Origin: a virus
Direction: 5' to 3' (one strand)
DNA length: 42,785 nt
Virus record (IMG/VR): IMGVR_UViG_3300030339_000091
A program made the position numbers and the translations under genes. The notes beneath the pieces were generated by a model that saw only the letters and a list, made by a program, of their open reading frames with translations, was not told the DNA's origin and made no database searches. Below, in pieces: positions 10,129 through 42,785 of this stretch. Each line of letters begins with the position of its first letter. Position 1 is the stretch's first letter.

Positions 10129-12591
10129 ATGACACTTTTAGAACAATTAGCAGTTGCACGAACTATAAAAAACGCTACCGGACCCGAAGAAAATACACGC
10201 GTTCGGCTTGGTGGATTATTCGAAGAAATAATCAACTATATGTCATCAATGCTGATAAGCACTGTATCACCTTATCAAGTGTACCTCGACACTACCGAAG
10301 ATGATCCGGTGATGACTGTAGAGGAGTGGTTGGCTTCGCTGGAAGGAACTGATGGTCGTGGAATTGTTTCAATTATTCTTACAAACACTGTAGGGTTAAT
10401 CAAAACCTACACTATAACCTACACTGATGAAACCACATCGACCTTTGATGTTACCAATGGATCAAATGGACAGCCGGGTGCTAATGGACGTGGAATTACT
10501 TCAATTACACTGACAAATACTGTCGATTTGGTTGACACTTATACAATTACGTTTACGGACAATTCAACAACTACTTTTGATATTGTAAACGGTGCAAATG
10601 GTACTGATGGAGACTCTCTTTGGGAACAATCACCAGATTTACCAAAAGTAAGCAATGGAAGGCTATATAACTGGCATGCTGTAAATGACAGTCGTAAATT
10701 AGCTCCTGAAGGTTGGCATGTGCTAACTGCAAATGAGTGGACAGCTCTTGTAAATTATTTAGTAGGCAGTATACCATTTCCAGAAGCAAATGGTGTAGTA
10801 GCTATAAAATTGAGAGAAGAGGGTTATTTCAATTGGATAAAAGATGTCCCTGAAACAAGAGCAACTAACGAAAGTGGTTTTTCAATCCTACCTAGTGGTA
10901 TCAAGGATAGTAATGGCCTCCGACTTATGGGTGAGTATAGCTATTTATGGGCATCTGATTTAGATGAGAGTAGTCATTGTTCGGCTCTAATTACTTGCTA
11001 TAATAATTTTTCTAATGGTTTAACCAATTTAGGAGATGGTAAGGATTTAGGTTTATCTGTCAGGTGTATTATAGATGAGGATAACCAAATCTATTCGCCA
11101 GGGGACGATGTGTTAGATGTTGATGGCAATGTATACACTGTTATTAAAATTGGAAATCAGCTTTTACTTGGACAGAATCTTGCAGTAACTCACTATAACA
11201 ATGGAGACGCAATACTTCAGGACTTCTCTGGAACTATTGGAGCTTACGCTAATTATTATACAGATAGCGAGGTAGGCGTATTTGAAGAAATTATTGAACC
11301 GACTGATAAAAAAAGACTTCAACAAAAGTCAATTGTTGGGTTAGAAAGTTTGGCAAATTCGATTTCTAGAGTAAAATCGGATATGTCATCTAAAATAGAT
11401 AAAGTACCACGATTAGGATTAACCGATATGCCTTATTTTTCTATAGGGTTTGCAACACCTGAATTTATTTCTGAAGGAATACCTATGCCAACTAACGTAG
11501 ATGAGTGGAATGCTTTTTTTGGTACTACAGAGATAGTAGAAGTGATAGGTTCAACAGATGGGTTGTTTTTCGACATCATGGCATATTACCAATTTAGTGT
11601 AAACAGCCTGTCTGGTAATATAAATTTAGTATCTTTTGATTCAGGTACACTACTTACTCAGATTATTAATAACGCATTTAAAGATTGTGTAAATTTAATA
11701 TCTATTGAATTAGGCAATAAATTAAATCAAATTGCCGCGGGAGCTTTTTGGAATACCGGCTTAACATCAGTAGTTATACCAAAAGGTATAGACGTAAATG
11801 GGGGTTATACATTTAGAGGTTGTAATAGTCTAACAAATGTTATTATTGAAACTACTATATTAGGCCCTGAAAATGGTGGGTATGGAGGGATATTTTCAGA
11901 ATGCATTAATTTAGCGAATGTCACTGCTCCCAATTTTTTAAAAACCAGCAATAACGGAGACATTAATACAGAGTTAGCATACCTTATAAATACATATAAT
12001 ACTCAAATTACCTGGACAAAGGATATAAACTTTGATATTCAAGCAGAATTATCACAAATACCGCCTTTGAAATTAGAGGTAGAGAGTAAAATGAATAAAC
12101 TCAGCAACGGCGCCGCTGAAAACATTAACCAGGTTACCATTGAGACCTTGTGTTCTTTAGGCTTTGATTTTGAAAATGCCATTTTTGCTTCTGCTAATTT
12201 CGTAAACGCACCTTTTAACGGTGCGCAATTTAGAAAAGTGAATTTTGAGGGTGCAATGCTGACCGGCTGTACGTTCACGCATGCCGATTTATCTTTTTGT
12301 ATGTTTTGGTCAGTCATAGCATCACAATGCGATATGGGGTTTGCAAATTTCACAGGGTCAGACCTTTCTTATGCTGTATTTGATGGGTGCTATTTATCAG
12401 ATGTAAATTTCACAGATGCAATACTTACAGCAGCTGATTGGGATAACTCAAATTTCACAACGGCAATCGGACTAAATCCAGACATCACGGCAGCATTAGC
12501 AGATTCACTTTTATATGATGGTTTATCTGTAACTTGGGTAGATGGTCTAGTGTATTCATATACTGACTTAGATGGCTGGCAATTGGTGTAA
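10129..12591 (+). CDS. Mosaic tail fibre / receptor-binding protein
   Basis: The N-terminus carries a fibre motif (YQVYLDTTEDDPVMTVEEWLASLEGTDG). Two 44-aa tandem repeats follow. Next come FISUMP-like segments (GRLYNWHAV...PEGWHVLTANEW...SVRCI, then VDGNVYTVIKIGNQLLLGQNL). BspA-type LRRs (AFKDCVNLISIEL...FRGCNSLTNVII) follow. The C-terminus is a run of pentapeptide repeats. Confidence 0.8.
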   Translation: MTLLEQLAVARTIKNATGPEENTRVRLGGLFEEIINYMSSMLISTVSPYQVYLDTTEDDPVMTVEEWLASLEGTDGRGIVSIILTNTVGLIKTYTITYTDETTSTFDVTNGSNGQPGANGRGITSITLTNTVDLVDTYTITFTDNSTTTFDIVNGANGTDGDSLWEQSPDLPKVSNGRLYNWHAVNDSRKLAPEGWHVLTANEWTALVNYLVGSIPFPEANGVVAIKLREEGYFNWIKDVPETRATNESGFSILPSGIKDSNGLRLMGEYSYLWASDLDESSHCSALITCYNNFSNGLTNLGDGKDLGLSVRCIIDEDNQIYSPGDDVLDVDGNVYTVIKIGNQLLLGQNLAVTHYNNGDAILQDFSGTIGAYANYYTDSEVGVFEEIIEPTDKKRLQQKSIVGLESLANSISRVKSDMSSKIDKVPRLGLTDMPYFSIGFATPEFISEGIPMPTNVDEWNAFFGTTEIVEVIGSTDGLFFDIMAYYQFSVNSLSGNINLVSFDSGTLLTQIINNAFKDCVNLISIELGNKLNQIAAGAFWNTGLTSVVIPKGIDVNGGYTFRGCNSLTNVIIETTILGPENGGYGGIFSECINLANVTAPNFLKTSNNGDINTELAYLINTYNTQITWTKDINFDIQAELSQIPPLKLEVESKMNKLSNGAAENINQVTIETLCSLGFDFENAIFASANFVNAPFNGAQFRKVNFEGAMLTGCTFTHADLSFCMFWSVIASQCDMGFANFTGSDLSYAVFDGCYLSDVNFTDAILTAADWDNSNFTTAIGLNPDITAALADSLLYDGLSVTWVDGLVYSYTDLDGWQLV

Positions 12592-12609
12592 ATTTCTAAT
12601 ATAAATTAT

Positions 12610-12990
12610 ATGGGATTAAAAATAAAACAATTCAAAAAAGGCGGTCAAACCTTTACAGATGCCTACGCAAAAGTAGGTGGAGTTAGATATGACAACGAGA
12701 CAAAAATCGCTTCGTTTGGAATAAAAATCTTTATGAGCAAAGAAGATAAGAATCTTATCTCTGAGATTCCGAACCTTTGGGTTCGAGTTACTCCAGGAAC
12801 TGATATGCTGGCTCAGTGCTATGCACGCATCTCTACAATCATTACTCAAACAAACGCTCAAATAACCAACCAACAGGCGGTGATTGATGCGATTGTTGAT
12901 AATGATAATTTGAAGCTGATGAAAGAAAGTCAACTGGCACGGATGAAAGAGAATGAGGTGTTGCAGCTTGAGGGTTCGGAAGAATTATAA
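12610..12990 (+). CDS. Hypothetical protein (126 aa)
   Basis: ORF between the fibre and the lysis genes. Confidence 0.5.
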   Translation: MGLKIKQFKKGGQTFTDAYAKVGGVRYDNETKIASFGIKIFMSKEDKNLISEIPNLWVRVTPGTDMLAQCYARISTIITQTNAQITNQQAVIDAIVDNDNLKLMKESQLARMKENEVLQLEGSEEL

Positions 12991-13975: not shown

Positions 13976-14575
13976 ATGAAAACTCCAACATCAAAATTAT
14001 TAGCAATTTTAGTACTATTTATCTTCGTGGCTTGTGCCGGAACAAAAAAAGTTACTCAGTCGAAAGAAAGTATTCAAGTTAAAACGAATACTGAAGTATC
14101 GAAAGTTTCAGAAGAAAAAGCGGATTTGACAACTTTTGTCAATACCGAAAAAAAAGCGGATGAATCGGTAAAGAAAAACATTACTTCAGCCGAAAACGAG
14201 AACGAAGAAACTGTTATTCATACTGTTTTGTACGATCCAAAATCGAAAGTTATGGTTTCGGAAACTACACAAAAAACAACCAAAGGTAAAAACAAAAAGG
14301 CTGTAGAATCTACCGAAACGCTATATTCTGCTACTGAAGTAACGGCTTTGTTTTCAAAATACTTGCATTCATACACCAATAAAATTGATAGCTTGAGTAA
14401 AGTAAACGTTTCGCTAGAAAGCGAACTTACGACTAAAACTACTCCAGTAAATAATTGGTGGAAATGGTTGCTCATAGGTATCATTATCCCAATTGTTATT
14501 TGGTTCATTATCAAAAAGAATTGGCATACTAAAGCATTCGTGTGGTTGCTCAACTTATTTAGGTTCAAAAAATAA
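13976..14575 (+). CDS. Lipoprotein with a C-terminal TM anchor: unimolecular (u-)spanin candidate
   Basis: N-terminal signal plus lipobox (LVLFIFVAC). C-terminal TM (WWKWLLIGIIIPIVIWFII). It lies directly after the endolysin. Confidence 0.5.
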   Translation: MKTPTSKLLAILVLFIFVACAGTKKVTQSKESIQVKTNTEVSKVSEEKADLTTFVNTEKKADESVKKNITSAENENEETVIHTVLYDPKSKVMVSETTQKTTKGKNKKAVESTETLYSATEVTALFSKYLHSYTNKIDSLSKVNVSLESELTTKTTPVNNWWKWLLIGIIIPIVIWFIIKKNWHTKAFVWLLNLFRFKK

Positions 14576-14625
14576 TCGTACTTTTTTGTTTTCATACTTG
14601 TATTAGATTTTAAAGTTAAGTTGAT

Positions 14626-18827: not shown

Positions 18828-20624
18828 ATGATAGAGTTCTACGTAAATAACAAGGAAGTACTTCTTCCTGAAGATTTTTCATTTGAGTTGAATGATGAAA
18901 ATCCGGAGATAACAAGCAAGGGTGAATTTTCGTTAGATATGACCGTTTCATTGCTAGAGCCTCAGAATGTAATTGTTTTTGAATTTTTAAACCGACTAAA
19001 TAAATCAACGACTTTAAAAACAGCCGATGCCTTATTGCGTAGAAATGGAGTATCACATTTAGGCACAATAATCGACATTGTAAATACGGATGTAGATGTT
19101 ACATTTCAATATGTTGCCGGAAATTCAGAACTTAAATATAATGTGAAAGCAGACAACCGGAAGATTTGGGAACTGACCGGATGGGGAACTGAATCAACAG
19201 TCAATTACGCCAGGGTTTTAGACAGCATTACAAATCCTAGTTGGACAAAGAATTTTGTTGCTGCACCTTTAATTATTGGCGGTCAGGTTTACAATAATTA
19301 TACTCTCAATGAGGGTGCATTAAATGTGCCTTCGACCATTACAGGTATTTCCAATTTTATAATGCAACCGTATTTATTGTATTATATCAATAAATTTCCT
19401 GAACTGCTAGGTTACAGACTTGTAAGTAATGTTTTGAATACAAATTTGCGTGCCCAAAAAATGTGGATGCTGAATTCTGCAGATTCGTTGAATTATGCCG
19501 ATGCGCTCCCAGATTGGACAATTGCCGAATTTGTTGATAATATAGAAGGCTTTTTTAATGTGTCATTTTTGGTTGATCCACTAAATAAAACGATCTCGAT
19601 TGAAAGTTTGGCATCCAGCATGGCCAAAAAGAAAACAGTAACGATCTCTAAAGTTTTAGATGCTTACGAAAGAAACTTACCGAATACGTCGAGACCGTTA
19701 CGGTTTGATTTTACCCGGGTAATTTATAAGGTTGGAGATTCAACTTACTTCAGGTACCAGCAGTTGAGCGATTCTGTATTGGAAAAGTGCACAATTATTG
19801 AATATGCTAATTTAACCGCAATGCAGAACGCATTGTGGGATACAGGTAATCTAAATGCGCTTATTATTCACAGAGATTTGGCAACCGGGAATGATTATTT
19901 TTACGGCGCTCCGAACATCAACTTGTACCGTGTAAATTGTGGTAGTTTTAATTATTTGAATTTGATAAATAAATTCAGTACAAACGGAACAAAAGAGAAG
20001 ATTTTGGAATTAAGCATCGTGCCGGCAGAGATGAATATTAAAACTCGAGACGTTGTTTGGTACAACGTCTCTGGACAGGAGATACATTTCCCTTGGCTTC
20101 ATTACCAACTTCCAAAATGCAGTAATTCTTATTATATAGGAAGCGAGCAGGGTTTTGTTGATACGGTGGAAAAATCGATTAAAACGGTACAGAGACAGAG
20201 TATTATGGAAGTTGCATTATTTACCGGTAAATTGCTATTGTACACGCAAACAGATGTAATTCAGAATGTACCTCAAATAATGTATCCATTCTCGCACCTT
20301 GATTATTATCCCGAATTTGGCGAACCGCTAGATTTGGGCGATCGGTATGCAATTTTTGAAGCATGGAAAAATACGCACTTCTCTCCGCTTGCGACTACCA
20401 CATTGCGGTTAATTGGTCCCGGTGGAGTTGTTACCGAATATCATCAGGAGTCGATACTTGATACCGATAACGAATATGTGTTTAAGGCTATTGATAACCC
20501 TGATATAAAGGCTAATAACTTATTTATTTACAACAACAAAAAGTACATGCCTATATCGTTTAATCGACAGGTATCGAATAAGCAAACAACGGTACTGGGA
20601 AAATTTTATCGGATGTTGGATTAA
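18828..20624 (+). CDS. Distal tail / baseplate-type protein (598 aa)
   Basis: Starts 3 nt after the TMP stop. Called by position only. Confidence 0.45.
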   Translation: MIEFYVNNKEVLLPEDFSFELNDENPEITSKGEFSLDMTVSLLEPQNVIVFEFLNRLNKSTTLKTADALLRRNGVSHLGTIIDIVNTDVDVTFQYVAGNSELKYNVKADNRKIWELTGWGTESTVNYARVLDSITNPSWTKNFVAAPLIIGGQVYNNYTLNEGALNVPSTITGISNFIMQPYLLYYINKFPELLGYRLVSNVLNTNLRAQKMWMLNSADSLNYADALPDWTIAEFVDNIEGFFNVSFLVDPLNKTISIESLASSMAKKKTVTISKVLDAYERNLPNTSRPLRFDFTRVIYKVGDSTYFRYQQLSDSVLEKCTIIEYANLTAMQNALWDTGNLNALIIHRDLATGNDYFYGAPNINLYRVNCGSFNYLNLINKFSTNGTKEKILELSIVPAEMNIKTRDVVWYNVSGQEIHFPWLHYQLPKCSNSYYIGSEQGFVDTVEKSIKTVQRQSIMEVALFTGKLLLYTQTDVIQNVPQIMYPFSHLDYYPEFGEPLDLGDRYAIFEAWKNTHFSPLATTTLRLIGPGGVVTEYHQESILDTDNEYVFKAIDNPDIKANNLFIYNNKKYMPISFNRQVSNKQTTVLGKFYRMLD

Positions 20625-21781
20625 TCTGTAATTTGTTTTACCACAGTATTTATAAGTTCCTGCGATGGCTTTCGAACATACCTTCTCAGCATTCTATCAG
20701 ATTTGTGATCGGTAAGTTTCCGAATTACAGATTCCGGAATCGATTTATTTTCTAAGGCAGTTATACCAGTATCGCGATACGAGTATAGCTGCTGATTTTT
20801 TTCTAACTCCATTTTGTCGCGAAGTTTATCCCAAATCTTATCAAGTTTTCGAGTATTCCACTTAAATAACCCGGGTTCCAAAACGGTAGATATAAGGTAA
20901 TATTTCATCGGGTATCTGTCGAATTCGTATAAAGTCGCCATTTTTACACAAAGCCATTCCGGAAGATAAGCAAATCGGAAATTATCGGTTTTCGATTTCC
21001 CTGCAGGGATTTTTATCACCTGGTTGAATAAATCAATATCGCAAATTTGAATTCGGCAAATTTCTGCCGGCCGAATGAAAGCAGCTCTCACCAAATCCAC
21101 TACTATCTCAAATCGTGGATTATTTTCCCTACACCAAAGAACCACTTTATCGTGGGTATTTAATTCAACCACCTGCCGGAACTTTTCCTCTTCCTTTTTC
21201 TTATCAAAATTCAAAAATACATTTTCTTTGCAATATTTCTTCTTAATTAGCCAGTACCAAAGGCTTCGATAAAAAACAAAATGATTATTATACGACCGAG
21301 AACCGCACTTCGGGTCAAGTTCAATCATGTCCATAAATTCATCGGCCAAGTCCTCATTAAATTGAATGGCAAAAATATTTTCAAGTTTCTTTTGAGTTAG
21401 CCAGTCAACCAGTTTTTTGCAGTAAGACTTGTAAGATCGGAATCCGTCTTCACTCATTTCCTTTTCCTTGATTATTTTAAATGTTTCAATAGCAGCTGTC
21501 AATTTTTCGTAGGCTTTTGTCACGTCAGCCCCGATGAATGGATTCTTTCCGGCAGCAAGATTGATATTGATGTCATTCGCTAATTTTCGAGTATAACGAT
21601 CGAGCGCAGTTTTACTCATCTTCTTTCGAAGATGATTCAACCGCATTTTTTTAGGCTTCAACGCATTGTATGCCGGGTGAAAAGCGTAGTAGATAATATA
21701 TAGTTCAGTTTCGTTGACAATTCTAGCCGGAATGTATTGAACTTGAAAATCGCTGTCGATTAATGTAGGTAAGTTGGTCAT
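20621..21781 (-). CDS. int: Tyrosine recombinase (phage integrase, Bacteroidota type with N-terminal arm-binding domain)
   Basis: Catalytic signature IRPAEICRIQ...DID, then LTDHKSDRMLRRYV (R...H..R...Y). The ATG at 21781 (MTNLPTLID) is preferred over 21844. Confidence 0.9.
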   Translation of the reverse strand: MTNLPTLIDSDFQVQYIPARIVNETELYIIYYAFHPAYNALKPKKMRLNHLRKKMSKTALDRYTRKLANDININLAAGKNPFIGADVTKAYEKLTAAIETFKIIKEKEMSEDGFRSYKSYCKKLVDWLTQKKLENIFAIQFNEDLADEFMDMIELDPKCGSRSYNNHFVFYRSLWYWLIKKKYCKENVFLNFDKKKEEEKFRQVVELNTHDKVVLWCRENNPRFEIVVDLVRAAFIRPAEICRIQICDIDLFNQVIKIPAGKSKTDNFRFAYLPEWLCVKMATLYEFDRYPMKYYLISTVLEPGLFKWNTRKLDKIWDKLRDKMELEKNQQLYSYRDTGITALENKSIPESVIRKLTDHKSDRMLRRYVRKPSQELINTVVKQITD

Positions 21782-21870
21782 ATTTTTAATTTTAATTAAC
21801 GTGTTGTTATTCAGCGTTTTATTAAAAATACGACCACTTTTCAAAGTGGTGGAGCGCTTTTGGCGCAGTA

Positions 21871-21912
21871 CTAAAACAAAAAACGCTGTATATTTTTGAT
21901 ATACAACGTTTT
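21871..21912 (-). terminator. Hairpin plus T-run read on the minus strand, between the repressor and int
   Basis: aaaacgttgtatat / atatacagcgtttt (13 of 14 bp) followed by ttgtttt on the minus strand. Confidence 0.45.
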
Positions 21913-21923
21913 AAATACTATTT

Positions 21924-21939
21924 TGCGGAGAGAGAGGGA
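21924..21939. other. Candidate attP core resembling the 3' end of a tRNA (minus strand TCCCTCTCTCTCCGCA)
   Basis: The minus strand reads CCCTC-TCTCTCC-G-CA. That fits a T-stem 3' half, then an acceptor 3' half, then a discriminator. It lies in the only intergenic space adjacent to int. Confidence 0.3.
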
Positions 21940-22132
21940 CAATCCGCCCAATTCTTCATACGTCATATATCCTTTAATTTATTGATACTCAAATCCTATC
22001 GAATATCTATTTTAGTTGCAATAACTAATCAGTGGCGCAATGTTAGCGCAATTTTCTAAGCTGACATTGCACTTATAAATCCTAATACAAAAAGGTTTAG
22101 CGAACATTTTTTACTGAATACAATTCTCATTA

Positions 22133-22582
22133 CTATCCGGCGAGTGCATCCTTCGCGGGTGCATTGGCGTTTTTTACACGTTCAAGCTCGATCTCAAGCG
22201 AGTGTGCTTTTTCCATCCATTCAACTTTTTCTTTCAGCAGTCCGGCTATCTCTACTTGCTGCTCATACATTATCTTTTTTAGCTCCTCTTTTTCTTCAGG
22301 GGGAGCATAAATAGTTAGTGGAGTAGCTACCACATTCGAATGCTTTGTCGGTTCGCTGTTTCCCTTTTTAGGGTATATAAACAACTCATTCGGTTCAATG
22401 CCGAAGAATATGCAAATCTTCATCAAGTTCTCTGCTGTGGGGTTAACCCCATACAAAGTACTCCTCGAAACGCCAATCTTGGCAGCAACGCTGTCTTGTG
22501 TTTCGCCTTTGTTTAATTTCACATACTGTGAAACTAAATGATTGACTTTGTTTCTGTTATACTCAATATTATTTACATTCAT
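22133..22582 (-). CDS. cI-like repressor (XRE-family HTH with coiled-coil C-terminus)
   Basis: HTH QDSVAAKIGVSRSTLYGVNPTAENLMKICIFFGIEPNELF. It is divergent from the cro-like gene. The ATG at 22582 was verified by hand. Confidence 0.8.
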   Translation of the reverse strand: MNVNNIEYNRNKVNHLVSQYVKLNKGETQDSVAAKIGVSRSTLYGVNPTAENLMKICIFFGIEPNELFIYPKKGNSEPTKHSNVVATPLTIYAPPEEKEELKKIMYEQQVEIAGLLKEKVEWMEKAHSLEIELERVKNANAPAKDALAG

Positions 22583-23457: not shown

Positions 23458-23674
23458 TAAGGCTTCCCGAAGCGTCAGGAAGTATCGAATACAACATTTT
23501 AAATACAATCTCTCCAAAAAACTCACAAAAAGGAGTGAAATAAGACAATAAACGCCAATTATATTTTTTGATAGTGAAACTTTTAGTGATGGTAGCCGGA
23601 AGTCTTACGGCGGGTAAAATCCCACTCCTTTTTTAAATTATCAACTTAACAATTAATTTTTAAAGCAAAATTTT

Positions 23675-28665: not shown

Positions 28666-28688
28666 AAACAACTTAACAATTTAGCATT

Positions 28689-28988
28689 ATGAAATACAAT
28701 GAAATTGAATACAACGAAAAAGGATTAGTAAAATGCGAAGTTTGCGGACTGTATTTTCAACGGGTATCATGCCACGTAAACAAAGCACATGGAATGTCAG
28801 CCAGCGAGTACAAGGCAAAATTCGGGTTTAAGCAAGGAGAAGGTTTGTGTAGCGAGAAAAGTCGCCAAAAAACAAGCAAACAATCAAGTAGCCGATATAG
28901 AATGAATAAAGCTAGCTTGTTTATTGAAATGAGCAAAAAAACTAGATTTCCTAAAGGAATTTGTGGAAGAGTTTTTAAATGCGCCTAA
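28689..28988 (+). CDS. Ros/MucR-family zinc-finger transcriptional regulator
   Basis: CEVCGLYFQRVSCHVNKAHGMSASEYKAKFGF matches the MucR pattern C..C...........H....HG.s..eY..k.G. Confidence 0.6.
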   Translation: MKYNEIEYNEKGLVKCEVCGLYFQRVSCHVNKAHGMSASEYKAKFGFKQGEGLCSEKSRQKTSKQSSSRYRMNKASLFIEMSKKTRFPKGICGRVFKCA

Positions 28989-29072
28989 CGATAGATGTAT
29001 GTGTATTGCCCGTGTTTTCGGGCTGCACAACACTGTCAAATTATAATAAGGGCTACACATACATTAGTGTTA
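28986..29072 (+). repeat. attC-like imperfect palindrome E1 (87 nt)
   Basis: The 5' end is GCC-TAAC-GATAG-ATGTATGTGTA-TT-GCCC. The 3' end is GGGC-TACACATACAT-TAGT-GTTA. GCCTAAC equals the canonical integron inverse core RYYYAAC. The TAA is the stop codon of the MucR-like gene. Confidence 0.6.
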
Positions 29073-29110
29073 TGTTTAGTTTATTCTTTCTTTAATCAAA
29101 ATTCAAAAAT

Positions 29111-29347
29111 ATGGCAACAATAGCAATGATTCCAGCCGATAAACAAGGCAACAAAATTTTTATTAAAGATTTACGAGTTGACGAAAAACAACGAACATTC
29201 GTAAAATATAAATCAACTTACAATGATATGCCATTTATGGAAGTCGAATTGTACGGAGTAGATAATGGTCAAAACTGCGCTATTTGCGGAGACGATGGCA
29301 CAATCTTATATCGTTTCTCAACCGCATGGCTTTCTTCTTTAAATTAA
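29111..29347 (+). CDS. Cassette 1 ORF, hypothetical (78 aa)
   Basis: ATG ORF bounded by E1 and E2. Confidence 0.55.
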   Translation: MATIAMIPADKQGNKIFIKDLRVDEKQRTFVKYKSTYNDMPFMEVELYGVDNGQNCAICGDDGTILYRFSTAWLSSLN

Positions 29348-29350
29348 ACA

Positions 29351-29437
29351 TAACGACCGAGGCTATCGGCTTCATGGGCGTTCACAATCGCACACACTTT
29401 CGCAATGCTAATTAATGATGCCGATAGGCGTATGTTA
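29351..29437 (+). repeat. attC-like imperfect palindrome E2 (87 nt)
   Basis: TAAC-GACCGAGG-CTATCGGC ... GCCGATAG-GCGTAT-GTTA. Confidence 0.6.
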
Positions 29438-29490
29438 CCTGCAGGTGTATCTTATATTATTAAAAATCAATCAACTAATAAAATACTAAT

Positions 29491-29991
29491 ATGAAAACAA
29501 TTGAAGTATCAGACGAAATGTATTCCGCATTAATGGAAATTTCAAATGAATTAAACACGCAAAGCCATAGAGGAACGGCAATGCCTTACTTTTTTCAAGT
29601 TCAAACAGAACATGAAATTGCAGTACCCGAAGGAAATGGAACTGAAGCATGGTATCAGGACGGTGGAACTATTGAAACTGAAAAAGAAATAGTTGATACC
29701 ATATTTGATTATAAGTGCGGAAAAATGACAAAGAAAAAGATTAAAGAATTAGATTCTTATGACAAAGAAGAAATACTCGAAGACGCTGGGTGGAGAAAGG
29801 TTTATTATGATTATGAGAAAAGACTTGAAAACGCATTCTTCACTGAAAAAGCATGTGAAGATCATATAAAAATGAACAAACACAACCTTAATAAGCCACA
29901 TAGTTATTTAAACCACGCTTTTCGTAATCCTGAAATGGAATTAGTGTTAACTTTCCTATGTGAACTAAGTGGTGGAAAAATGCACAGATAA
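29491..29991 (+). CDS. Cassette 2 ORF, hypothetical (166 aa)
   Basis: ATG ORF bounded by E2 and E3. Confidence 0.6.
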   Translation: MKTIEVSDEMYSALMEISNELNTQSHRGTAMPYFFQVQTEHEIAVPEGNGTEAWYQDGGTIETEKEIVDTIFDYKCGKMTKKKIKELDSYDKEEILEDAGWRKVYYDYEKRLENAFFTEKACEDHIKMNKHNLNKPHSYLNHAFRNPEMELVLTFLCELSGGKMHR

Positions 29992-30023
29992 TCGAACCTG
30001 CACGGACTTTTTACACTTGCAGG

Positions 30024-30107
30024 TAACGTGTGGCTATGCCTGCACGGCTTGCACACATTGTCGGAGCGTAAATTACTTGTCAGCCGTGTATGGCATAGGT
30101 GATGTTA
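30024..30107 (+). repeat. attC-like imperfect palindrome E3 (84 nt)
   Basis: TAAC-GTGTGG-CTATGCC-TG-CACGGCT ... AGCCGTG-TAT-GGCATAG-GTGAT-GTTA. Confidence 0.6.
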
Positions 30108-30166
30108 GCAGCATGGCGGTTCTTAATTAAAAATTTCTCAAATATTAATATATAAAAATTACAAAA

Positions 30167-30514
30167 ATGAAAAACTTAGAAATCAACATTCAAGACGAAT
30201 GTGCAAAAATTCATCACCAATATGGTATGAGCGAAATGGCAAACTATCGAATCGAACAGCTTTTCGATAAAAAATTAAAAGAAAAAATGCGATGGATTCT
30301 AGTTGACGAAGAAGAGCCTATATGTGTATTGGAAGACGAAGGAATTAATTATTCAAAATACTTGGAAATAAAAGTAAAAGGCTACGAGCATCCGTTCATC
30401 GGTTATTATGTAAAAGCTAATGACGACCAATTCTTTGATTTTATTCATAAATCAGTTGACGAAGGAATAAAACAAGAAGACGTTACTCACTTTCGTTTTG
30501 TTGTAGAAGCCTAA
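30167..30514 (+). CDS. Cassette 3 ORF, hypothetical (115 aa)
   Basis: ATG ORF bounded by E3 and E4. Confidence 0.6.
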   Translation: MKNLEINIQDECAKIHHQYGMSEMANYRIEQLFDKKLKEKMRWILVDEEEPICVLEDEGINYSKYLEIKVKGYEHPFIGYYVKANDDQFFDFIHKSVDEGIKQEDVTHFRFVVEA

Positions 30515-30551
30515 TAGTACGCAGGCGGTTGATTTTTCTTCCGCTTGCTGC

Positions 30552-30681
30552 TAACGTATCGACAGTATGCTTTAGTAGCACATCTGCGGGCTACATACTG
30601 CCGAAAAACAAATTCCGCTAATGCGGGCAATTAACTTTCAATTAACCACAAAAGCGGGCTATTAAGCATACTGTAGTGTTA
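30552..30681 (+). repeat. attC-like imperfect palindrome E4 (130 nt)
   Basis: TAAC-GTATCGA-CAGTATGCTT ... AAGCATACTG-TAGT-GTTA, with a long variable centre. Confidence 0.6.
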
Positions 30682-30702
30682 GTAGCCGTTTATTCTTTCT
30701 TT

Positions 30703-31344
30703 ATGAATCCACAAGACATTGACATAATCGTAGGCTGTGAAGAATCACAAGCAATCACAATCGAATTTAGAAAACTCGGCTTTAATGCTTTTAGCTGCGA
30801 CTTACAAGAATGTTCGGGCGGACACCCCGAATGGCATTTACAAATGGACGTTTTAGAAGCTATTAAACTAAAGGAATGGAAACTTGGTATATTTCATCCC
30901 ACGTGTACGTTTTTAAGCCGTGCCGGAGCTCGTTGGCTTTATCAAAAAGGCGAAATAAACAAAGAACGGTACGAAAAGGGATTAAAAGCAAAACAGTTTT
31001 TTATGGAGCTTTATAATAGCGATATTGATTATTTGCTACTTGAAAACCCAACGCCTTTAAAAATTTACGATTTGCCAAAACCATCGCAATGGGTTGAACC
31101 GTGGCAGTTCGGACATCCTTTTTCAAAGAAAACATTATTTTGGCTCAAAGGATTACCGCCTTTAATGTCAACAAAAATAATGAGTGAATACAAACCTTTT
31201 CTGCCTTCAAATACTGGCGGTGCAAAAAGAGGTCAAAAAGCAACGTTTAGAAACATTAGTCAGAAGGATTCGAGTAAAACATTTTCGGGTATTGCACAAG
31301 CTATCGCAACGCAATACGGCTCTTTTCTTTTAAATGGCTACTAA
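30703..31344 (+). CDS. Cassette 4 ORF: C5-cytosine-methyltransferase-like protein
   Basis: IIVGCEESQA...FSCDL...IFHPTCTFLSRAG...LLLENP resembles MTase motifs I, IV (P-C) and VI (ENV). The ATG at 30703 is preferred over the GTG at 30676. The stop codon lies inside the next TAAC. Confidence 0.5.
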   Translation: MNPQDIDIIVGCEESQAITIEFRKLGFNAFSCDLQECSGGHPEWHLQMDVLEAIKLKEWKLGIFHPTCTFLSRAGARWLYQKGEINKERYEKGLKAKQFFMELYNSDIDYLLLENPTPLKIYDLPKPSQWVEPWQFGHPFSKKTLFWLKGLPPLMSTKIMSEYKPFLPSNTGGAKRGQKATFRNISQKDSSKTFSGIAQAIATQYGSFLLNGY

Positions 31345-31425
31345 CGTATTGCAGCTATGGTTTAGTGCCGGACTTAACGCACAAAAGGTCGGACGAGAGC
31401 AAATAGAGTATTTTTTTGTGCGTGG
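31342..31425 (+). repeat. Degenerate attC-like element E5
   Basis: Starts TAACG at 31342. A second TAACG lies at 31375. A 10-bp stem ACGCACAAAA/TTTTGTGCGT is present. The 3' GTTA is replaced by GTGG. Confidence 0.35.
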
Positions 31426-31443
31426 ATTTCTTAATTTTAAAAT

Positions 31444-32184
31444 ATGGATAAACAAACAATCGCAGTATGGTTTTCTTGTGGGGCTGCCAGTGCAGTAGCT
31501 GCAATGAAAACACTTGAAAAGTATGGACAAACCCACAATATACTTATCGTGAATAATCCAGTTATCGAAGAACATGAGGATAATAGACGTTTTTTAAAGG
31601 ACGTTGAAGAATGGTTACAGCATCCAATTATTGAAGCTAAAAACAAAGATTTTCCTAACTGCTCGATAGTTGAAGTTTTCGACAAACGAAAATACATGAG
31701 TGGCAATTTAGGCGCGCCCTGTACAATGCTTTTGAAAAAAGAAGCCCGTTATCAATTTGAACTAACGCATAAAATTGATTTTCATGTACTCGGATTTACA
31801 ATCGACGAATGGGAAAGGCAAAAGAACTTCAATGAGAGTGAAAGAGGTAACACAATTCCAGTACTTATAAGCGAACTCATAACTAAAGAAGATTGCTTTA
31901 AAATTCTTCGGAAAGCTAAAATAAAACTACCAGCTATTTACAGCATGGAATTTCCAAACGCTAATTGTATTGGCTGCGTAAAATCACAAAGCCCAACTTA
32001 TTGGAATTTAGTGAGGCGTGAGTTTCCTGATATTTTTGAGAAGCGAGCAGAACAAAGCAGACGTATAGGCTGCACACTGGTAAAGAGAAAAGGTAAACGA
32101 ATCTTTTTGGACCAACTAAAACCAACTGATAAAGGCGGTAAAATTAAAAGCTGGGAGTGTGGGATTTTTTGCGACACTAAATAA
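31444..32184 (+). CDS. PP-loop / PAPS-reductase-superfamily protein
   Basis: The N-terminal IAVWFSCGAASAVAA is a variant of the SGG.DS PP-loop. The C-terminal Cys pair (NCIGC) is typical of PAPS-reductase-like proteins. Confidence 0.5.
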   Translation: MDKQTIAVWFSCGAASAVAAMKTLEKYGQTHNILIVNNPVIEEHEDNRRFLKDVEEWLQHPIIEAKNKDFPNCSIVEVFDKRKYMSGNLGAPCTMLLKKEARYQFELTHKIDFHVLGFTIDEWERQKNFNESERGNTIPVLISELITKEDCFKILRKAKIKLPAIYSMEFPNANCIGCVKSQSPTYWNLVRREFPDIFEKRAEQSRRIGCTLVKRKGKRIFLDQLKPTDKGGKIKSWECGIFCDTK

Positions 32185-32286
32185 TAACGGCTTGAAAAGC
32201 CGAGAGCGTGGATAAAAAATACGGACACAATGAGCAACACTTTAATACGAGCGCAAAAACAAGGCATTAACCATAGGTGTGTGTTA
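32185..32286 (+). repeat. Degenerate attC-like element E6
   Basis: Starts TAACG immediately after the stop codon and ends GTGTGTGTTA. Its internal pairing is poor. Confidence 0.3.
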
Positions 32287-32339
32287 GCAGCATACCGCTT
32301 GTCTTTCGTATCAAAAAACTTTTTGCGGTTGCTGCTAAC
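32283..32339. repeat. ORF-less hairpin with cassette-type ends (GTTAGCAGCATACCGC - 26 nt - GCGGTTGCTGCTAAC)
   Basis: Arms of 15-16 nt read directly. The ends are near-identical to those flanking the cassette 3 ORF. Confidence 0.7.
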
Positions 32340-32391
32340 AATATTATATGTTTAATTCATATTTTGCAAACATTCGCAAAACTCTAAAATT

Positions 32392-32601
32392 ATGTCACTT
32401 ACACACAAACAAAAGATAAATCTACGCAAACTAGATAGAACTACTAAAATTGAAATTATGCAAGAGTTCGCAGATGAAATTATGACTATCGAACAATATA
32501 GTGAAGTGACAAAAATTCCACCACGAACAATTTACGCTAAATTTCACACGCCACAAATAGGTGGATTTGAATTGTGCGGGCATAAATTTACTTTTATATA
32601 A
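32392..32601 (+). CDS. Excisionase-like (HTH_17/AlpA-type) small DNA-binding protein
   Basis: TIEQYSEVTKIPPRTIYAKFHTPQIGGFELCGHKF resembles the Xis pattern ...s.rTiy......ip..kiGg...f. Confidence 0.45.
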   Translation: MSLTHKQKINLRKLDRTTKIEIMQEFADEIMTIEQYSEVTKIPPRTIYAKFHTPQIGGFELCGHKFTFI

Positions 32602-32625
32602 ATATCAACTTAACAACAAATTATC

Positions 32626-42460: not shown

Positions 42461-42660
42461 CTTACTACCTTACTACCTTACTATTTTTGTTTGTATTCAT
42501 TTGAAATACAATAGTTTAAAAGGTAGTAACCATTTAGAAAAAATGCTTTGAAATGGTTACTACTTGTTACTATTTAAAAATGCTTACTACCTTGTTTTGT
42601 TATATAAATGTATGATATATAGACTTATATGTTTATATAGTAGGTAGTAAGTAAAAAGTA
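42461..42660. repeat. Iteron array, TTACTACC and its reverse complement
   Basis: Direct copies at 42462, 42470 and 42584. Inverted copies (GGTAGTAA) at 42522 and 42643. Variants at 42557, 42567 and 42478. One more copy lies at 219..226 across the circular junction. A 13-bp perfect inverted repeat gtagtaaccattt/aaatggttactac spans 42523..42563. Confidence 0.75.
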
Positions 42661-42785
42661 AAAATATTTTTTATTTGAAAATGCGTTTTTTAGTGTTATT
42701 TCTTTGTATTTCAATGTATTATGATTAAGAAAGTTTAACTTTGAAGATGTTTTGTTTTTTATTTGTGCTCTATAAATTCAGTGTA
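42659..42785. repeat. Terminal direct repeat copy 2 (identical to 1..127)
   Basis: Exact identity read directly. Confidence 0.95.

Follow-up and report, generated by a model that had tools for sequence, protein, structure and literature searches.

A probable integron-type cassette array without its own recombinase in a phage genome

Results

A Six-Unit Array between attC-Like Palindromes

Positions 28986-32391 (+ strand) of phage IMGVR_UViG_3300030339_000091 very probably constitute a six-cassette integron-type array, five units with an ORF and one empty, that either lost its own recombinase or never had one. The imperfect palindromes TAACG...TGTTA previously noticed between its ORFs (E1 to E4) were confirmed. 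The window, meaning the whole 42,785-nt stretch analyzed, represents a complete genome, the 127 nt at its start recurring at its end; hence, the absence of a second recombinase is real.

20621-21844 (-): tyrosine recombinase, the only one in the genome
28689-28988 (+): c0, ROS/MucR-like ORF, left border of the array; its stop codon TAA lies within the first TAACG
28986-29072 (+): E1, attC-like imperfect palindrome, 87 nt, 11-bp perfect stem; cassette 1
29069-29354 (+): cassette 1 body, GTTA-X, ORF c1 (29111-29347, 78 aa), X'-TAAC
29351-29437 (+): E2, attC-like palindrome, 87 nt; cassette 2
29434-30027 (+): cassette 2 body, GTTA-X, ORF c2 (29491-29991, 166 aa, phrog_3205 by PHROGs), X'-TAAC
30024-30107 (+): E3, attC-like palindrome, 84 nt; cassette 3
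30104-30555 (+): cassette 3 body, GTTA-X, ORF c3 (30167-30514, 115 aa), X'-TAAC
30552-30681 (+): E4, attC-like palindrome, 130 nt, main 125-130 nt class; cassette 4
30678-31345 (+): cassette 4 body, GTTA-X, ORF c4 (DNA methyltransferase; start GTG 30676 or ATG 30703, end 31344, stop being the TAA of TAAC), X'-TAAC
31342-31443 (+): E5, degenerate palindrome to about 31432, truncated; TAACG and left arm CAGCTATGG kept, right arm and GTTA lost
31444-32188 (+): cassette 5, ORF c5, PAPS reductase-like, 246 aa, ending X'-TAAC with T at -7; 5' site damaged
32185-32286 (+): E6, chimeric or decayed; TAACG and GTGTTA present, arms noncomplementary (no stem), z -0.3
32283-32339 (+): terminal "empty" unit, GTTAGCAGCAtaCCGC...GCGGtTGCTGCTAAC, 57 nt, without ORF
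32340-32391 (+): attI-like sequence directly 3' of the last TAAC, AATATTATATGTTTAATTC...

All array ORFs lie on the + strand and each element is preceded by a stop codon and followed by the leader and ATG of the next ORF, in agreement with the preliminary description. The four well-formed palindromes it recognized were borne out by sequence, folding, and an independent model, with positions that were correct for E1, E2, and E4 and one base off for E3 (true 30024-30107, 84 nt). The conserved termini were present throughout, all four elements starting with TAACG and finishing with (G/A)TGTTA, and so was the internal layout, a few unpaired bases after TAACG being followed by a stem of 8 to 19 bp and a variable center. 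The GCCTAAC reported for E1 precedes it, at 28983-28989. Folding z-scores for E1 to E4 on the + strand ranged from -2.0 to -2.7 (E1, -14.1 kcal/mol, z -2.7; E3, -17.2 kcal/mol).

Covariance model R1 was built solely from recombinase-linked arrays elsewhere and is independent of the window. Across both strands of the 42.8 kb, its top four matches were E4 (44.4 bits, E 5e-6), E1 (19.6 bits), E3 (19.3 bits), and E2 (16.9 bits), followed by a next best of 15.1 bits; that E1 to E3 scored just 17 to 20 bits (E 0.16 to 0.49) reflects R1 being a model of the 125-nt class. E5 and E6, rightly described as degenerate, gave no match with R1, and no Rfam family matches the elements. E5 holds an unrelated 10-bp hairpin (ACGCACAAAA/TTTTGTGCGT), and a 41-aa remnant ORF begins at an ATG in the loop of E6. 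With E5 truncated, E6 chimeric, and the last unit empty, the downstream end of the array is decaying.

The proposal that the ORFs are cassettes held for c1 to c5 and failed for the first ORF (28689-28988). This ORF, c0 (Pfam ROS_MUCR, E 2.4e-6), has the leader typical of the lineage in front of it (AACAACTTAACAA at 28667) and no T at -7, a base that never varies in cassettes, and no GTTA-X partner was found upstream of it; c0 forms the left boundary of the array rather than a cassette. A shared cassette pool is apparent from homologs of c2, c4, and c5 inside recombinase-linked arrays: a c2 homolog (63%) occurs in that of L008/L075, homologs of c4 (phrog_757 DNA methyltransferase, E 2e-40) are cassettes in many arrays, and a homolog of c5 (phrog_424, E 1.6e-38) lies upstream of the recombinase in L136. 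No homologs of c3 were found. The ends of the empty unit resemble those of cassette 3, the pair 30104/32339 having GTTAGCAGCA in common. Next to the attI-like sequence is a 69-aa ORF (32392-32601), where other arrays have the recombinase gene. In L076 and L125, the attI-like site has the 10-mer TATTATATGT directly after TAAC; in the window, this 10-mer is displaced by two bases. The window's attI-like sequence is also similar to those of L129 (TAAC|AATAATATGTAAAC) and L151 (TAAC|AATTATATATAAAA). Relatives in the phage lineage (primase identity 59-86%) carry other genes at the array position and no such array, and no junction-precise comparison for the window's own cassettes was found among them.

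Complementary Flanks and the Fold of the Site

In the window, the 10 to 16 nt that follow each GTTA are complementary, read in reverse, to the sequence preceding the next TAAC. This complementarity, over 12 to 16 nt, recurs for four ORF segments in a row and coincides exactly with the borders of the elements. The terminal inverted repeat of cassette 1 (GTTATGTTTAgTTTA / TAAAtTAAACATAAC) extends over 15 nt with a single mismatch, a G:T at +7, and that of cassette 2 (GTTACCTGCAgGTGTA / TACACtTGCAGGTAAC) over 16 nt, again with its single mismatch at +7; cassette 3 (GTTAGCAGCAtGGCGG / CCGCtTGCTGCTAAC) has T:T rather than G:T at this position, and cassette 4 carries GTTAGTAGCCgTTTA / TAAAtGGCTACTAAC. 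Among 108 nonredundant pairs from other arrays, the mean match was 7.3/10 and 68 pairs reached at least 8, compared with a mean of 3.1 and none at 8 or more in two controls. The +7/-7 pair was G:T in 79/79 cassettes, to which window units c1, c2, and c4 conform, while positions 1-6 and 8-10 were Watson-Crick paired and variable in sequence. Compensatory changes in 14/15 stem pairs indicate that structure is conserved and sequence variable; across element copies, only about 5 nt per end are conserved.

Such flank complementarity would be the trace expected from excised circular cassettes. Reconstituted circular sites folded at -22 to -30 kcal/mol versus -14 to -23 kcal/mol for the array form (cassette 1, -22.4 versus -14.1 kcal/mol). 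Folding of the single strands, which the preliminary description had proposed as a check, revealed that both strands fold, the + strand always more stably.

Linkage to a Small Recombinase and Mobility in Other Genomes

The window's tyrosine recombinase is an ordinary large integrase beside the repressor (Pfam Phage_integrase) and, as first described, not an IntI, scoring 18.5 bits against the integron-integrase model TIGR02249 (cut-off 265). It is 23% identical to the array-linked recombinase, in the catalytic domain only, and is outside the cassette system. Elsewhere, the element family adjoins a 267-aa Xer-like tyrosine recombinase without the IntI-specific domain. An element was found within 3 kb upstream of the recombinase gene in 48 of 53 loci and downstream in 1 of 77, and by copy number, 187 were upstream, 4 downstream, and 0 on the opposite strand. 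Every array examined closed with X'-TAAC|, after which came a conserved attI-like sequence of the TAYTATATGTAAA type; the start codon of the recombinase lay about 40 to 55 nt past the last TAAC. The natural partner of the element family is this small Xer-like tyrosine recombinase, not IntI. Two points weigh against the integron-type reading: P12002L_attC1, the one published family member tried with IntI1, gave no recombination, and the linkage to the recombinase could be due in part to synteny conserved across a single broad group of phages.

The same elements form arrays in many unrelated phage contigs, and sites of this kind adjoin a small Xer-like recombinase in dozens of other Bacteroidota phages. 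The elements also occur beside homologous recombinases in Bacteroidota chromosomes, with model scores of up to 102.8 bits; the recombinase gene there is about 100 nt away from an attI-like site. Comparison of related genomes, likewise proposed beforehand, revealed gain, loss, and sharing of units precisely at TAAC/AAC. In the otherwise unrelated contigs L021, L022, L023, and L025, the sole common part is one methyltransferase cassette homologous to cassette 4 (90-96% identity), and homology stops exactly at TAACG. Among cultured Polaribacter phages, Freya_1, 5, 9, and 10 show whole-unit differences beside the recombinase gene: a 4.9-kb block in Freya_10 is absent from Freya_1, a single 304-bp unit in Freya_10 is absent from Freya_9, and Freya_5 adds yet another junction, the third, at this site. 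All three lie exactly at AAC|ACCCCTATAAC. Cassette units are therefore mobile with junction precision in related genomes.

Discussion

Proposed Mechanism and Alternatives

The mobile unit runs from TAAC to the next TAAC and comprises G, hairpin element E, GTTA, X, the ORF, X', and TAAC. In a circularized cassette, X' would meet X, adding 10 to 11 bp to the TAAC/GTTA stem and completing one long hairpin site. Units are gained and lost at the conserved attI-like site, with crossover inside AAC, and we propose that the small Xer-like tyrosine recombinase beside the arrays of other phages and Bacteroidota chromosomes would be the family's enzyme and catalyze these steps. It most probably acts on a folded single strand, here the ORF sense strand; the invariant G:T wobbles are possible on that strand only, which favors it as the substrate. 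The case for a single-strand mechanism comprises the IntI/attC analogy and these strand-asymmetric wobbles. Neither a cognate small Xer-like recombinase nor a remnant of one is present in the complete 42,785-nt genome, so any current activity of the array is unproven, and it would be movable only with a recombinase in trans, from the host or a co-infecting phage.

We regard it as unlikely that the small recombinase serves chiefly for phage integration, with the attI-like site as its attP and the window's cassettes captured from a host before the recombinase gene was lost. Here, a phage would integrate into an attC-type site of a host array, excise via a different attC, and take the neighboring cassettes with it. 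Homologous arrays and recombinases do exist in host chromosomes, the variable block is always immediately next to the attI-like site, a Vibrio prophage with an attC site on each side has been described (PMC9892861), and Bartlau et al. read the small recombinase genes as lysogeny integrases. However, besides a small recombinase after the primase, Cellulophaga phage Ingeline encodes a distinct large integrase beside its repressor, and the single-unit difference between Freya_9 and Freya_10 is equally explained by cassette insertion or excision. Bulk capture also sits poorly with phage-array ORFs being nearly all co-oriented, whereas those of L233, the only chromosomal array with its ORFs examined, run both ways. 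Host capture would involve no other recombination chemistry and is one version of the integron-type explanation, not a competitor to it.

RNA hairpins and PeSL-like modules, both raised in the preliminary description, misfit the flank-complement signature and the rule of element orientation. That the hairpins serve inter-cistronic processing, stability, termination, or translation control, and recur through selection on expression, is very improbable, even though phage elements are all on the sense strand between ORFs and their stems covary. In some loops, the next ORF also has its A-rich leader and an in-frame ATG, which makes a secondary role in expression plausible. Such a function leaves unexplained the complementarity across each ORF, 300 to 700 nt apart, the homology breakpoints exactly at TAAC, and the conserved attI-like terminus. 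Furthermore, bacterial elements run nearly all one way relative to the recombinase gene, yet the L233 ORFs run both ways; no T-runs follow E1 to E4, terminator-like sites are no commoner than in shuffled sequence, and Rfam offered no family. There is only a slight chance that an HUH transposase moves the elements as MITE-like, IS200/IS605-type, or REP elements, or that they are PeSL-like linkers for homologous recombination, despite the mosaic genomes and a resemblance to IS608 and REP elements, which likewise have subterminal hairpins beside a conserved tetranucleotide. The copies differ, and about 5 conserved nt per end is too little for homologous recombination; the only recombination enzyme consistently found next to the arrays is the tyrosine recombinase, the flanking ORFs having had no systematic HUH/RAYT screen; and units include an ORF and a circular-permutation signature, which transposon ends do not yield.

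Comparison with Integrons

The integron interpretation of the preliminary description stands as regards attC-type sites and a CALIN-like array without cognate integrase, both of which are supported, but not as regards orientation, an IntI partner, or the first ORF as a cassette. Unlike in a classical integron, the array-linked recombinase has no IntI-specific domain, and the orientation relative to the ORF, thought to be that of integron attC, is actually opposite to that of classical cassettes, with the ORF sense strand corresponding to the attC bottom strand. We take the sense strand TAAC-G...T-GTTA to be the bottom strand on the basis of the aadA1/aadA7 top strand. Hence, the hairpin here travels with the downstream ORF, not with the upstream one. 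For attCaadA7, both strands are printed in Table S3 of PMC9892861, where the strand marking is unreadable in the text. Given a complete genome without a cognate recombinase, the window's array is orphaned and resembles a CALIN, which is likewise a cluster of attC-type sites without a nearby integrase. The arrays of phages and Bacteroidota chromosomes that are linked to the small recombinase look like an unrecognized variant of the integron.

An orphan cassette array in a complete phage genome

Positions 1-127 of the window are identical to 42659-42785, hence it represents a complete, circularly permuted or assembled, phage genome of ~42,658 bp. The four palindromes initially described within it (E1 to E4) proved real, each carrying TAACG at the 5' end and (G/A)TGTTA at the 3' end, and each showing the reported layout, in which a short unpaired run next to TAACG is succeeded by a stem with a variable centre. 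As also reported, the ORFs are co-oriented, all on the + strand, with the elements occupying the gaps between them. The attC-like size and architecture likewise held up, E1 to E4 being 84 to 130 nt long (attC range, 57 to 141 nt), bounded by TAACG...TGTTA, folding, and sharing the stem covariation of a wider element family; the full RYYYAAC consensus was found in E1 only (GCCTAAC). The array (28986-32391) contains the following:

28986-29072, + strand: E1, well-formed palindrome
29351-29437, + strand: E2, well-formed palindrome
30024-30107, + strand: E3, well-formed palindrome
30552-30681, + strand: E4, well-formed palindrome
from 31342, + strand: E5, left end alone kept
32185-32286, + strand: E6, both termini present, stem absent
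32336-32339, + strand: last TAAC of the array, followed by an attI-like sequence and a 69-aa ORF

This region is an orphan array of six units, in which cassettes 1 to 4 are intact, the site of cassette 5 is damaged, and the final unit is empty. The four well-formed sites, judged by fold and termini rather than by the standard attC model, span 1.7 kb, and intI is absent from the window. In agreement with the preliminary description, its integrase (20621-21844, - strand) is an ordinary phage enzyme, large and matching Pfam Phage_integrase, that scored 18.5 bits against the integron integrase model TIGR02249 (cut-off 265) and is thus no integron integrase. No second recombinase was found elsewhere in the complete genome, and no intI with the extra domain lies beside the array. 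Any continued movement of the array would depend on a recombinase supplied in trans, and its own activity is doubtful given the missing recombinase and partial decay. The identified cargo comprises a DNA methyltransferase and a PAPS reductase-like gene; the small cassette ORFs mostly had no match in Pfam and NCBIfam.

Several units resemble one another at their edges. The ends of cassette 3 and of the terminal empty unit are near-identical (30104-30119 and 32283-32298, GTTAGCAGCA...; 30541-30555 and 32325-32339, ...TGCTGCTAAC), so deletion within a duplicate of cassette 3, or inter-site recombination, may have given rise to the empty unit. The leaders 3' of E1 and E4 contain an identical 16-mer, GTTTATTCTTTCTTTA (29079-29094 and 30688-30703), and those 3' of E3 and E5 have TTCTTAATT(A/T)AAAAT in common, hence leaders may be related even where hairpins differ. 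No inverted-repeat partner for the end of the left-border ORF, c0, was found in the window.

We also scrutinized the lineage of the phage. A blastn search with window positions 27-34 kb returned no relatives among 50,697 phage records. Relatives retrieved through the primase from viral and metagenome collections (primases 59 to 86% identical to that of the window) have this gene in common with the window and match it again from 33981 on, with unrelated genes or nothing in between, and none of them has an array. A leader motif, ATCAACTTAACAA, occurs at window 23640-23652, 28667-28679, and 32604-32616 and in four further loci (L001, L003, L004, and L241), sits shortly 5' of the ATG of several early or accessory ORFs, and separates variable genes in relatives of this lineage; two window copies bracket the block from c0 to the 69-aa ORF. 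Allowing up to two mismatches, 10 matches were found against 3.1 expected, and the motif may be a lineage-specific promoter or translation leader. A second intergenic repeat, (TA)ACGCCTTGGAnGGGCTTnGTAAAATCCA, sometimes starting TAACG, lies 5' of ORFs in the relatives (L001 7120-7160 and 7520-7560; L003 6820-6860; L004 4795-4835). Two relatives carry an identical 43-nt TAACG...TGTTA hairpin after different ORFs (L001 8832-8874, L004 5197-5239), with stem CTGGCAAT/ATTGCCAG, that falls in the smallest class of the element family.

Cassette flanks are complementary and extend the hairpin

In four consecutive ORF segments of the window, the bases after each GTTA (X) are the reverse complement of those before the next TAAC (X'), the pairs being GTTATGTTTAgTTTA/TAAAtTAAACATAAC, GTTACCTGCAgGTGTA/TACACtTGCAGGTAAC, GTTAGCAGCAtGGCGG/CCGCtTGCTGCTAAC, and GTTAGTAGCCgTTTA/TAAAtGGCTACTAAC. 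These repeats sit exactly at the element borders. Such complementarity is expected if each unit was once a circle joining both flanks, and is a classical hallmark of integron cassettes. Circular sites rebuilt from each element and its own flanks folded at -22.4, -27.5, -29.6, and -29.2 kcal/mol, compared with -14.1, -15.2, -19.3, and -22.9 kcal/mol for the corresponding elements as they stand in the array, and in every case the + strand folded more stably than the - strand.

The same relationship was found in other arrays. Across 108 non-redundant, consecutive pairs, the 10 nt after one GTTA matched the flank before the next TAAC at a mean of 7.3 of 10 positions, 68 pairs matching at 8 or more, while two controls gave a mean of 3.1 and none reaching 8. 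In the 79 cassettes, from L075-L154, with at least 8 matches among the first 10 flank positions, position +7 was G and position -7 was T without exception; positions 1-6 and 8-10 were Watson-Crick paired with variable sequence, and pairing ended at approximately position 11. The family signature is therefore T-N6-TAACG ... TGTTA-N6-G, with the stem lengthened by 10 to 11 bp. In the window, this G:T pair occurs in cassettes c1, c2, and c4 (+7 at 29079, 29444, and 30688), while c3 and the empty unit have T:T. With G:T both at +7 and beside TAAC, only the sense strand can make the fully paired hairpin, from which we infer a folded single-strand substrate with strand choice.

A family of recombinase-linked elements

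Unrelated phage contigs in IMG/VR hold homologues of c2 and c4 with elements of this type on their flanks, a simple scan giving 75 copies in the orientation of the genes and 5 on the opposite strand. Element lengths form a main cluster at ~125 nt and smaller classes at ~85, ~75, and ~45 nt, into which the 130-nt and 84- to 87-nt elements of the window fit, and compensatory changes occur in 14 of 15 stem pairs. A covariance model (R1) was trained on 60 elements from arrays with a linked recombinase, leaving the window out, and run unfiltered over both strands of the whole window. Its top four matches, all full-length and on the + strand, were E4 (44.4 bits, E = 5e-6), E1 (19.6), E3 (19.3), and E2 (16.9), the next-best match in the window scoring 15.1 bits. 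On these scores, the window elements belong to the recombinase-linked family; homologues of c2, c4, and c5 were themselves found inside recombinase-linked arrays.

Many element loops carry an A-rich leader and an ATG that is in frame with the downstream ORF through NTG-TTA, for example MIVESTKAQIKHESPNIANAVLGAGF... (loops at L022 5859-5985, L023 2828-2954, L055 1144-1266, and L155 3790-4100). The cassette protein thus seems to owe its translation start, and an extension at its N terminus, to the recombination site. One loop in the Polaribacter phage Freya_10 contains most of a small ORF. Inspection of element loops by eye gave no convincing match to the Bacteroidetes-type promoter (TTTG / TAnnTTTG).

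The recombinase in question emerged from a tblastn search with an approximate IntI1 query that gave a single match, in L008, where an ORF of 267 aa immediately follows the final element of the array. This small recombinase has 248 relatives in the viral collection. Of the best 80 of these loci, 53 extended more than 1.5 kb upstream of the recombinase gene, and 48 of these 53 had an element within 3 kb on that side; one downstream was found at 1 of 77. In total, 187 elements were upstream, 4 downstream, and 0 on the opposite strand. Every array examined terminates in X'-TAAC followed at the junction by a conserved sequence of the TAYTATATGTAAA type, with the recombinase start codon ~40 to 55 nt past the terminal TAAC. 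This conserved sequence is the counterpart of attI. The window reads TAAC then AATATTATATGT at the end of its array, resembling the attI-like consensus, and the sequence after its last TAAC, AATATTATATGTTT, includes the 10-mer TATTATATGT of the L076 and L125 attI-like sites, shifted by two bases; there, a 69-aa ORF and not a recombinase follows.

Against NCBIfam, the small recombinase scored 188 bits with XerA_Arch, ~155 with XerC/XerD, and 140 with the integron integrase model (TIGR02249), the last as two stretches and under the cut-off. Aligned with IntI1 it shows a gap of ~49 aa, taken here to be the probable location of the IntI-specific insertion. Cellulophaga phage Ingeline_1 (L156) encodes two integrases (11729-12925 and 21703-22494 of the record), the large one beside a repressor and the small Xer-like one beyond the primase and a series of small ORFs, with ...TTGTTGCTAAC and, across the junction, ACCCACATAAC ahead of it. 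Its gene order resembles that of the window, which is without the small integrase.

Cassettes move at exact junctions

The sharing, gain, and loss of ORFs precisely at element junctions, proposed as a test when the array was first described, were seen in contigs L021-L026 and in the Freya phages. Four contig groups (L021, L022/L024, L023, and L025/L026) are unrelated apart from one stretch of 700 to 780 bp, 90 to 96% identical, that encodes a c4-like methyltransferase. On the right, ...TTGCACCTAACG is the exact limit of homology in all four. L022 and L025 share the upstream element, with homology starting exactly at TAACG, while that of L023 is different. These boundaries make the mobile unit a TAAC-to-TAAC segment in which the hairpin comes first and its own ORF second. 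The classical order of an ORF and a downstream hairpin is ruled out: what L022 and L025 have in common is the ORF plus the hairpin that precedes it, similarity between the downstream hairpins is lost right after TAACG, and a single unit that distinguishes two Freya isolates consists of a hairpin and then an ORF.

That unit, of 304 bp, is present in Freya_10 and missing from Freya_9, the junctions being ...ACCAAC^G...GCTAAC^ACCCC in the former and ...ACCAAC^ACCCC in the latter (carets mark the junctions). Relative to Freya_1, Freya_10 holds an extra 4.9-kb block of small ORFs, on either side of which the two phages match at 100% and 99.9% identity. The block is bounded precisely by ...TTGTTTACAAC and by ACCCCTATAACAACAATAAG, the latter being the attI-like site that precedes the small integrase gene; at this site a third junction is seen in Freya_5. 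When a 4.7-kb stretch of Freya_10 (most of the extra block and the start of the integrase gene) was queried, Danklef_1-5, phages of another species on another Polaribacter host, matched 38% of it at 97.5% identity in four pieces (~38.0-42.2 kb of their records). This sharing suggests recent exchange of cassettes between phage species. In the paper describing the Freya isolates, the small integrase gene is taken only as a sign of temperate lifestyle.

Related arrays on Bacteroidota chromosomes

A further 556 relatives of the small recombinase were found in the genome collection, nearly all in Bacteroidota, with genera including Flavobacterium, Winogradskyella, Aquimarina, Maribacter, and Chitinophaga. 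On chromosomes, elements are located 3' of the recombinase gene, on the opposite strand (46 copies versus 4). In F. saccharophilum DSM 1811, R1 scores reached 102.8 bits, an attI-like TAAC followed by TTGTATATAGTA lies ~100 nt from the recombinase stop codon, and the array ORFs are found in both orientations; the recombinase scored 222 bits with XerA_Arch (cut-off 220) and 206 with the integron integrase model, in two stretches. Element orientation thus tracks the recombinase and the attI-like site and not the ORFs. Chromosomal arrays, e.g., that of L233, have near-uniform elements and flanks (GTTACCACTAACG), resembling sedentary chromosomal integrons. Many recombinase homologues in the Bacteroidota genome contigs L160-L239 lie within ~1 kb of a contig end, as if an adjoining repeat array breaks assemblies.

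Alternative explanations

Stem-loops between co-oriented ORFs could act at the RNA level, as intrinsic terminators or processing hairpins. No terminator-like site was found on the + strand at E1 to E4, the count equalling that of shuffled sequence, and the elements matched no Rfam family at gathering thresholds or in permissive mode. That orientation follows the recombinase and attI-like site also argues against a role at the RNA level. The PeSL elements of T4-type phages, near-identical repeats thought to work via homologous recombination, are a parallel, in that stem-loops likewise separate small accessory ORFs in a phage early region of variable gene content. Unlike PeSL, the elements here are unconserved in sequence, have junctions that fall precisely at AAC, and are linked to a site-specific recombinase; with a mean column identity among elements of 43 to 49% and only the 5-nt termini invariant, repeated linkers of the PeSL type were rejected.

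Integron-type recombination at these sites remains the preferred reading, and follow-up of the array exposed what looks like an undescribed integron variant. The preliminary description had picked out a real feature and interpreted it largely correctly, while its orientation and the identity of its partner enzyme were wrong. We give roughly even chances to the fuller proposal that the window array belongs to a previously unrecognised class of integron, present on Bacteroidota chromosomes and in many phages, that employs a small Xer-like enzyme without the IntI domain and attC-type sites with a longer R-box and an invariant G:T, whose phage cassettes are inverted, the site carrying the translation start of its own gene, and which is active today in cultured Polaribacter phages, whose near-identical isolates differ by whole cassettes at the attI-like site.

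Significance

Integrons are defined by IntI with its extra domain. If the proposal is true, integron logic, i.e., hairpin sites defined by their structure, cassettes in circular form, and an insertion site of its own by the recombinase gene, would operate with a plain Xer-like recombinase, and would do so in a phylum and its viruses where it was unexpected, surveys having found integrons nearly absent from Bacteroidota. This bears on the origin of integrons from Xer recombinases and on the real need for the IntI domain. Phages would own a dedicated device for shuffling accessory genes, DNA methyltransferases among them, which would offer a concrete explanation for the hypervariable accessory regions well known from their genomes. 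They could also swap cassettes with host arrays, suggesting a phage-host route for cargo that here includes a DNA methyltransferase and PAPS reductase. As the Freya isolates are cultured and already differ by single cassettes, the system is directly testable.

Comparison with known systems

Xer-dependent mobile elements offer one point of reference. The attP of CTX-phi is a folded single-stranded hairpin that serves as substrate for Xer recombination, while in the pdif modules of Acinetobacter plasmids, sites of alternating orientation bracket the genes; both depend on XerC/XerD of the host and on a conserved dif-like sequence of 28 bp. The arrays described here have in common with them a Xer-family recombinase and, with CTX-phi, a probable folded hairpin substrate. 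In contrast, the arm sequences are free here, structure alone being kept, and the recombinase is element-encoded with its own attI-like site.

Phages are known to carry clusters of attC-type sites with no integron integrase. Qi, Rajabal, Ghaly, Tetu and Gillings (2023) reported 17 such CALINs, with 2 to 4 sites, and 3 complete integrons among 10,705 phage genomes (PMC9892861), one CALIN being that of Polaribacter phage P12002L; phages Freya, Ingeline, and Leef are absent from their reports (PMC9892861). IntI1 recombined 5 of 6 phage attC sites, the sole failure being P12002L_attC1, which had been called by HattCI and not by the Infernal step (PMC9892861). In its termini, layout, and loop (TCGTTTTAATG), P12002L_attC1 (TAACGGCTACGGCTAAACGG...CCGTTTTAGCCATTGTTA) corresponds to the short class of the family and is a short member of it. 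The published CALIN, in the methyltransferase region, gave no match to R1 at E-values up to 1. The sole R1 match in this phage (L240) is a full-length element of the 125-nt class at 14502-14625 (40.8 bits), located between tail genes gp23 and gp24 and distant from the reported CALIN. Unlike here, no link was drawn to a Xer-like recombinase or an attI-like site (PMC9892861). Beyond Qi et al. 2023, no publication on an integron-like system with a Xer-like recombinase in phages or Bacteroidota was found in the openly accessible literature searched.

The closest likeness is to classical integrons. As in these, the sites are imperfect palindromes (43 to 135 nt) conserved only at the AAC/GTT cores and built of an R-box, an unpaired spacer, an L-stem, and a variable centre; the opening bases of a cassette are complementary to its own end site, both in the window and in the family flanks; crossover falls inside AAC/GTT, with AAC junctions in Freya and L021-L025; a tyrosine recombinase gene adjoins a dedicated attI-like site; the cassettes closest to that site vary most; and cassettes are compact, the stop codon often lying within TAAC. 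Unlike classical integrons, the family recombinase is 267 to 290 aa long without the IntI-specific insertion, and the R-box stem runs 10 to 11 bp past GTTA, with G:T invariant at +7. The host range also differs, the family residing in Bacteroidota and their phages, for which few or no integrons are reported in IntegronFinder surveys (IntegronFinder 2 reported very few in Bacteroidetes).

Phage cassettes also differ in orientation, in that the ORF sense strand is taken to correspond to the attC bottom strand and the hairpin precedes its own ORF. The classical orientation relative to the ORF that was originally claimed is thus inverted, since the sense strand reads TAAC-G...T-GTTA with the ORFs directed towards the attI-like end. 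We take the top strand of aadA1/aadA7, i.e., the classical ORF sense strand, to read TAAC-A...C-GTTA, which would make the TAACG-type strand of attCaadA7 the bottom strand. On this assumption, phage cassettes are inverted relative to classical ones. Both strands of attCaadA7 are printed in Table S3 of PMC9892861, where the strand marking is lost in the text; one reads TAACG CTTGA ATTAAGCC...GGCTTGAAT GAAT TGTTA, the layout of the window + strand. As the ORFs are read towards attI, phage arrays have no Pc-type arrangement. Outward from the attI-like site, the order is still that of classical integrons, cassette content and then attC, with crossover in GTT/AAC.
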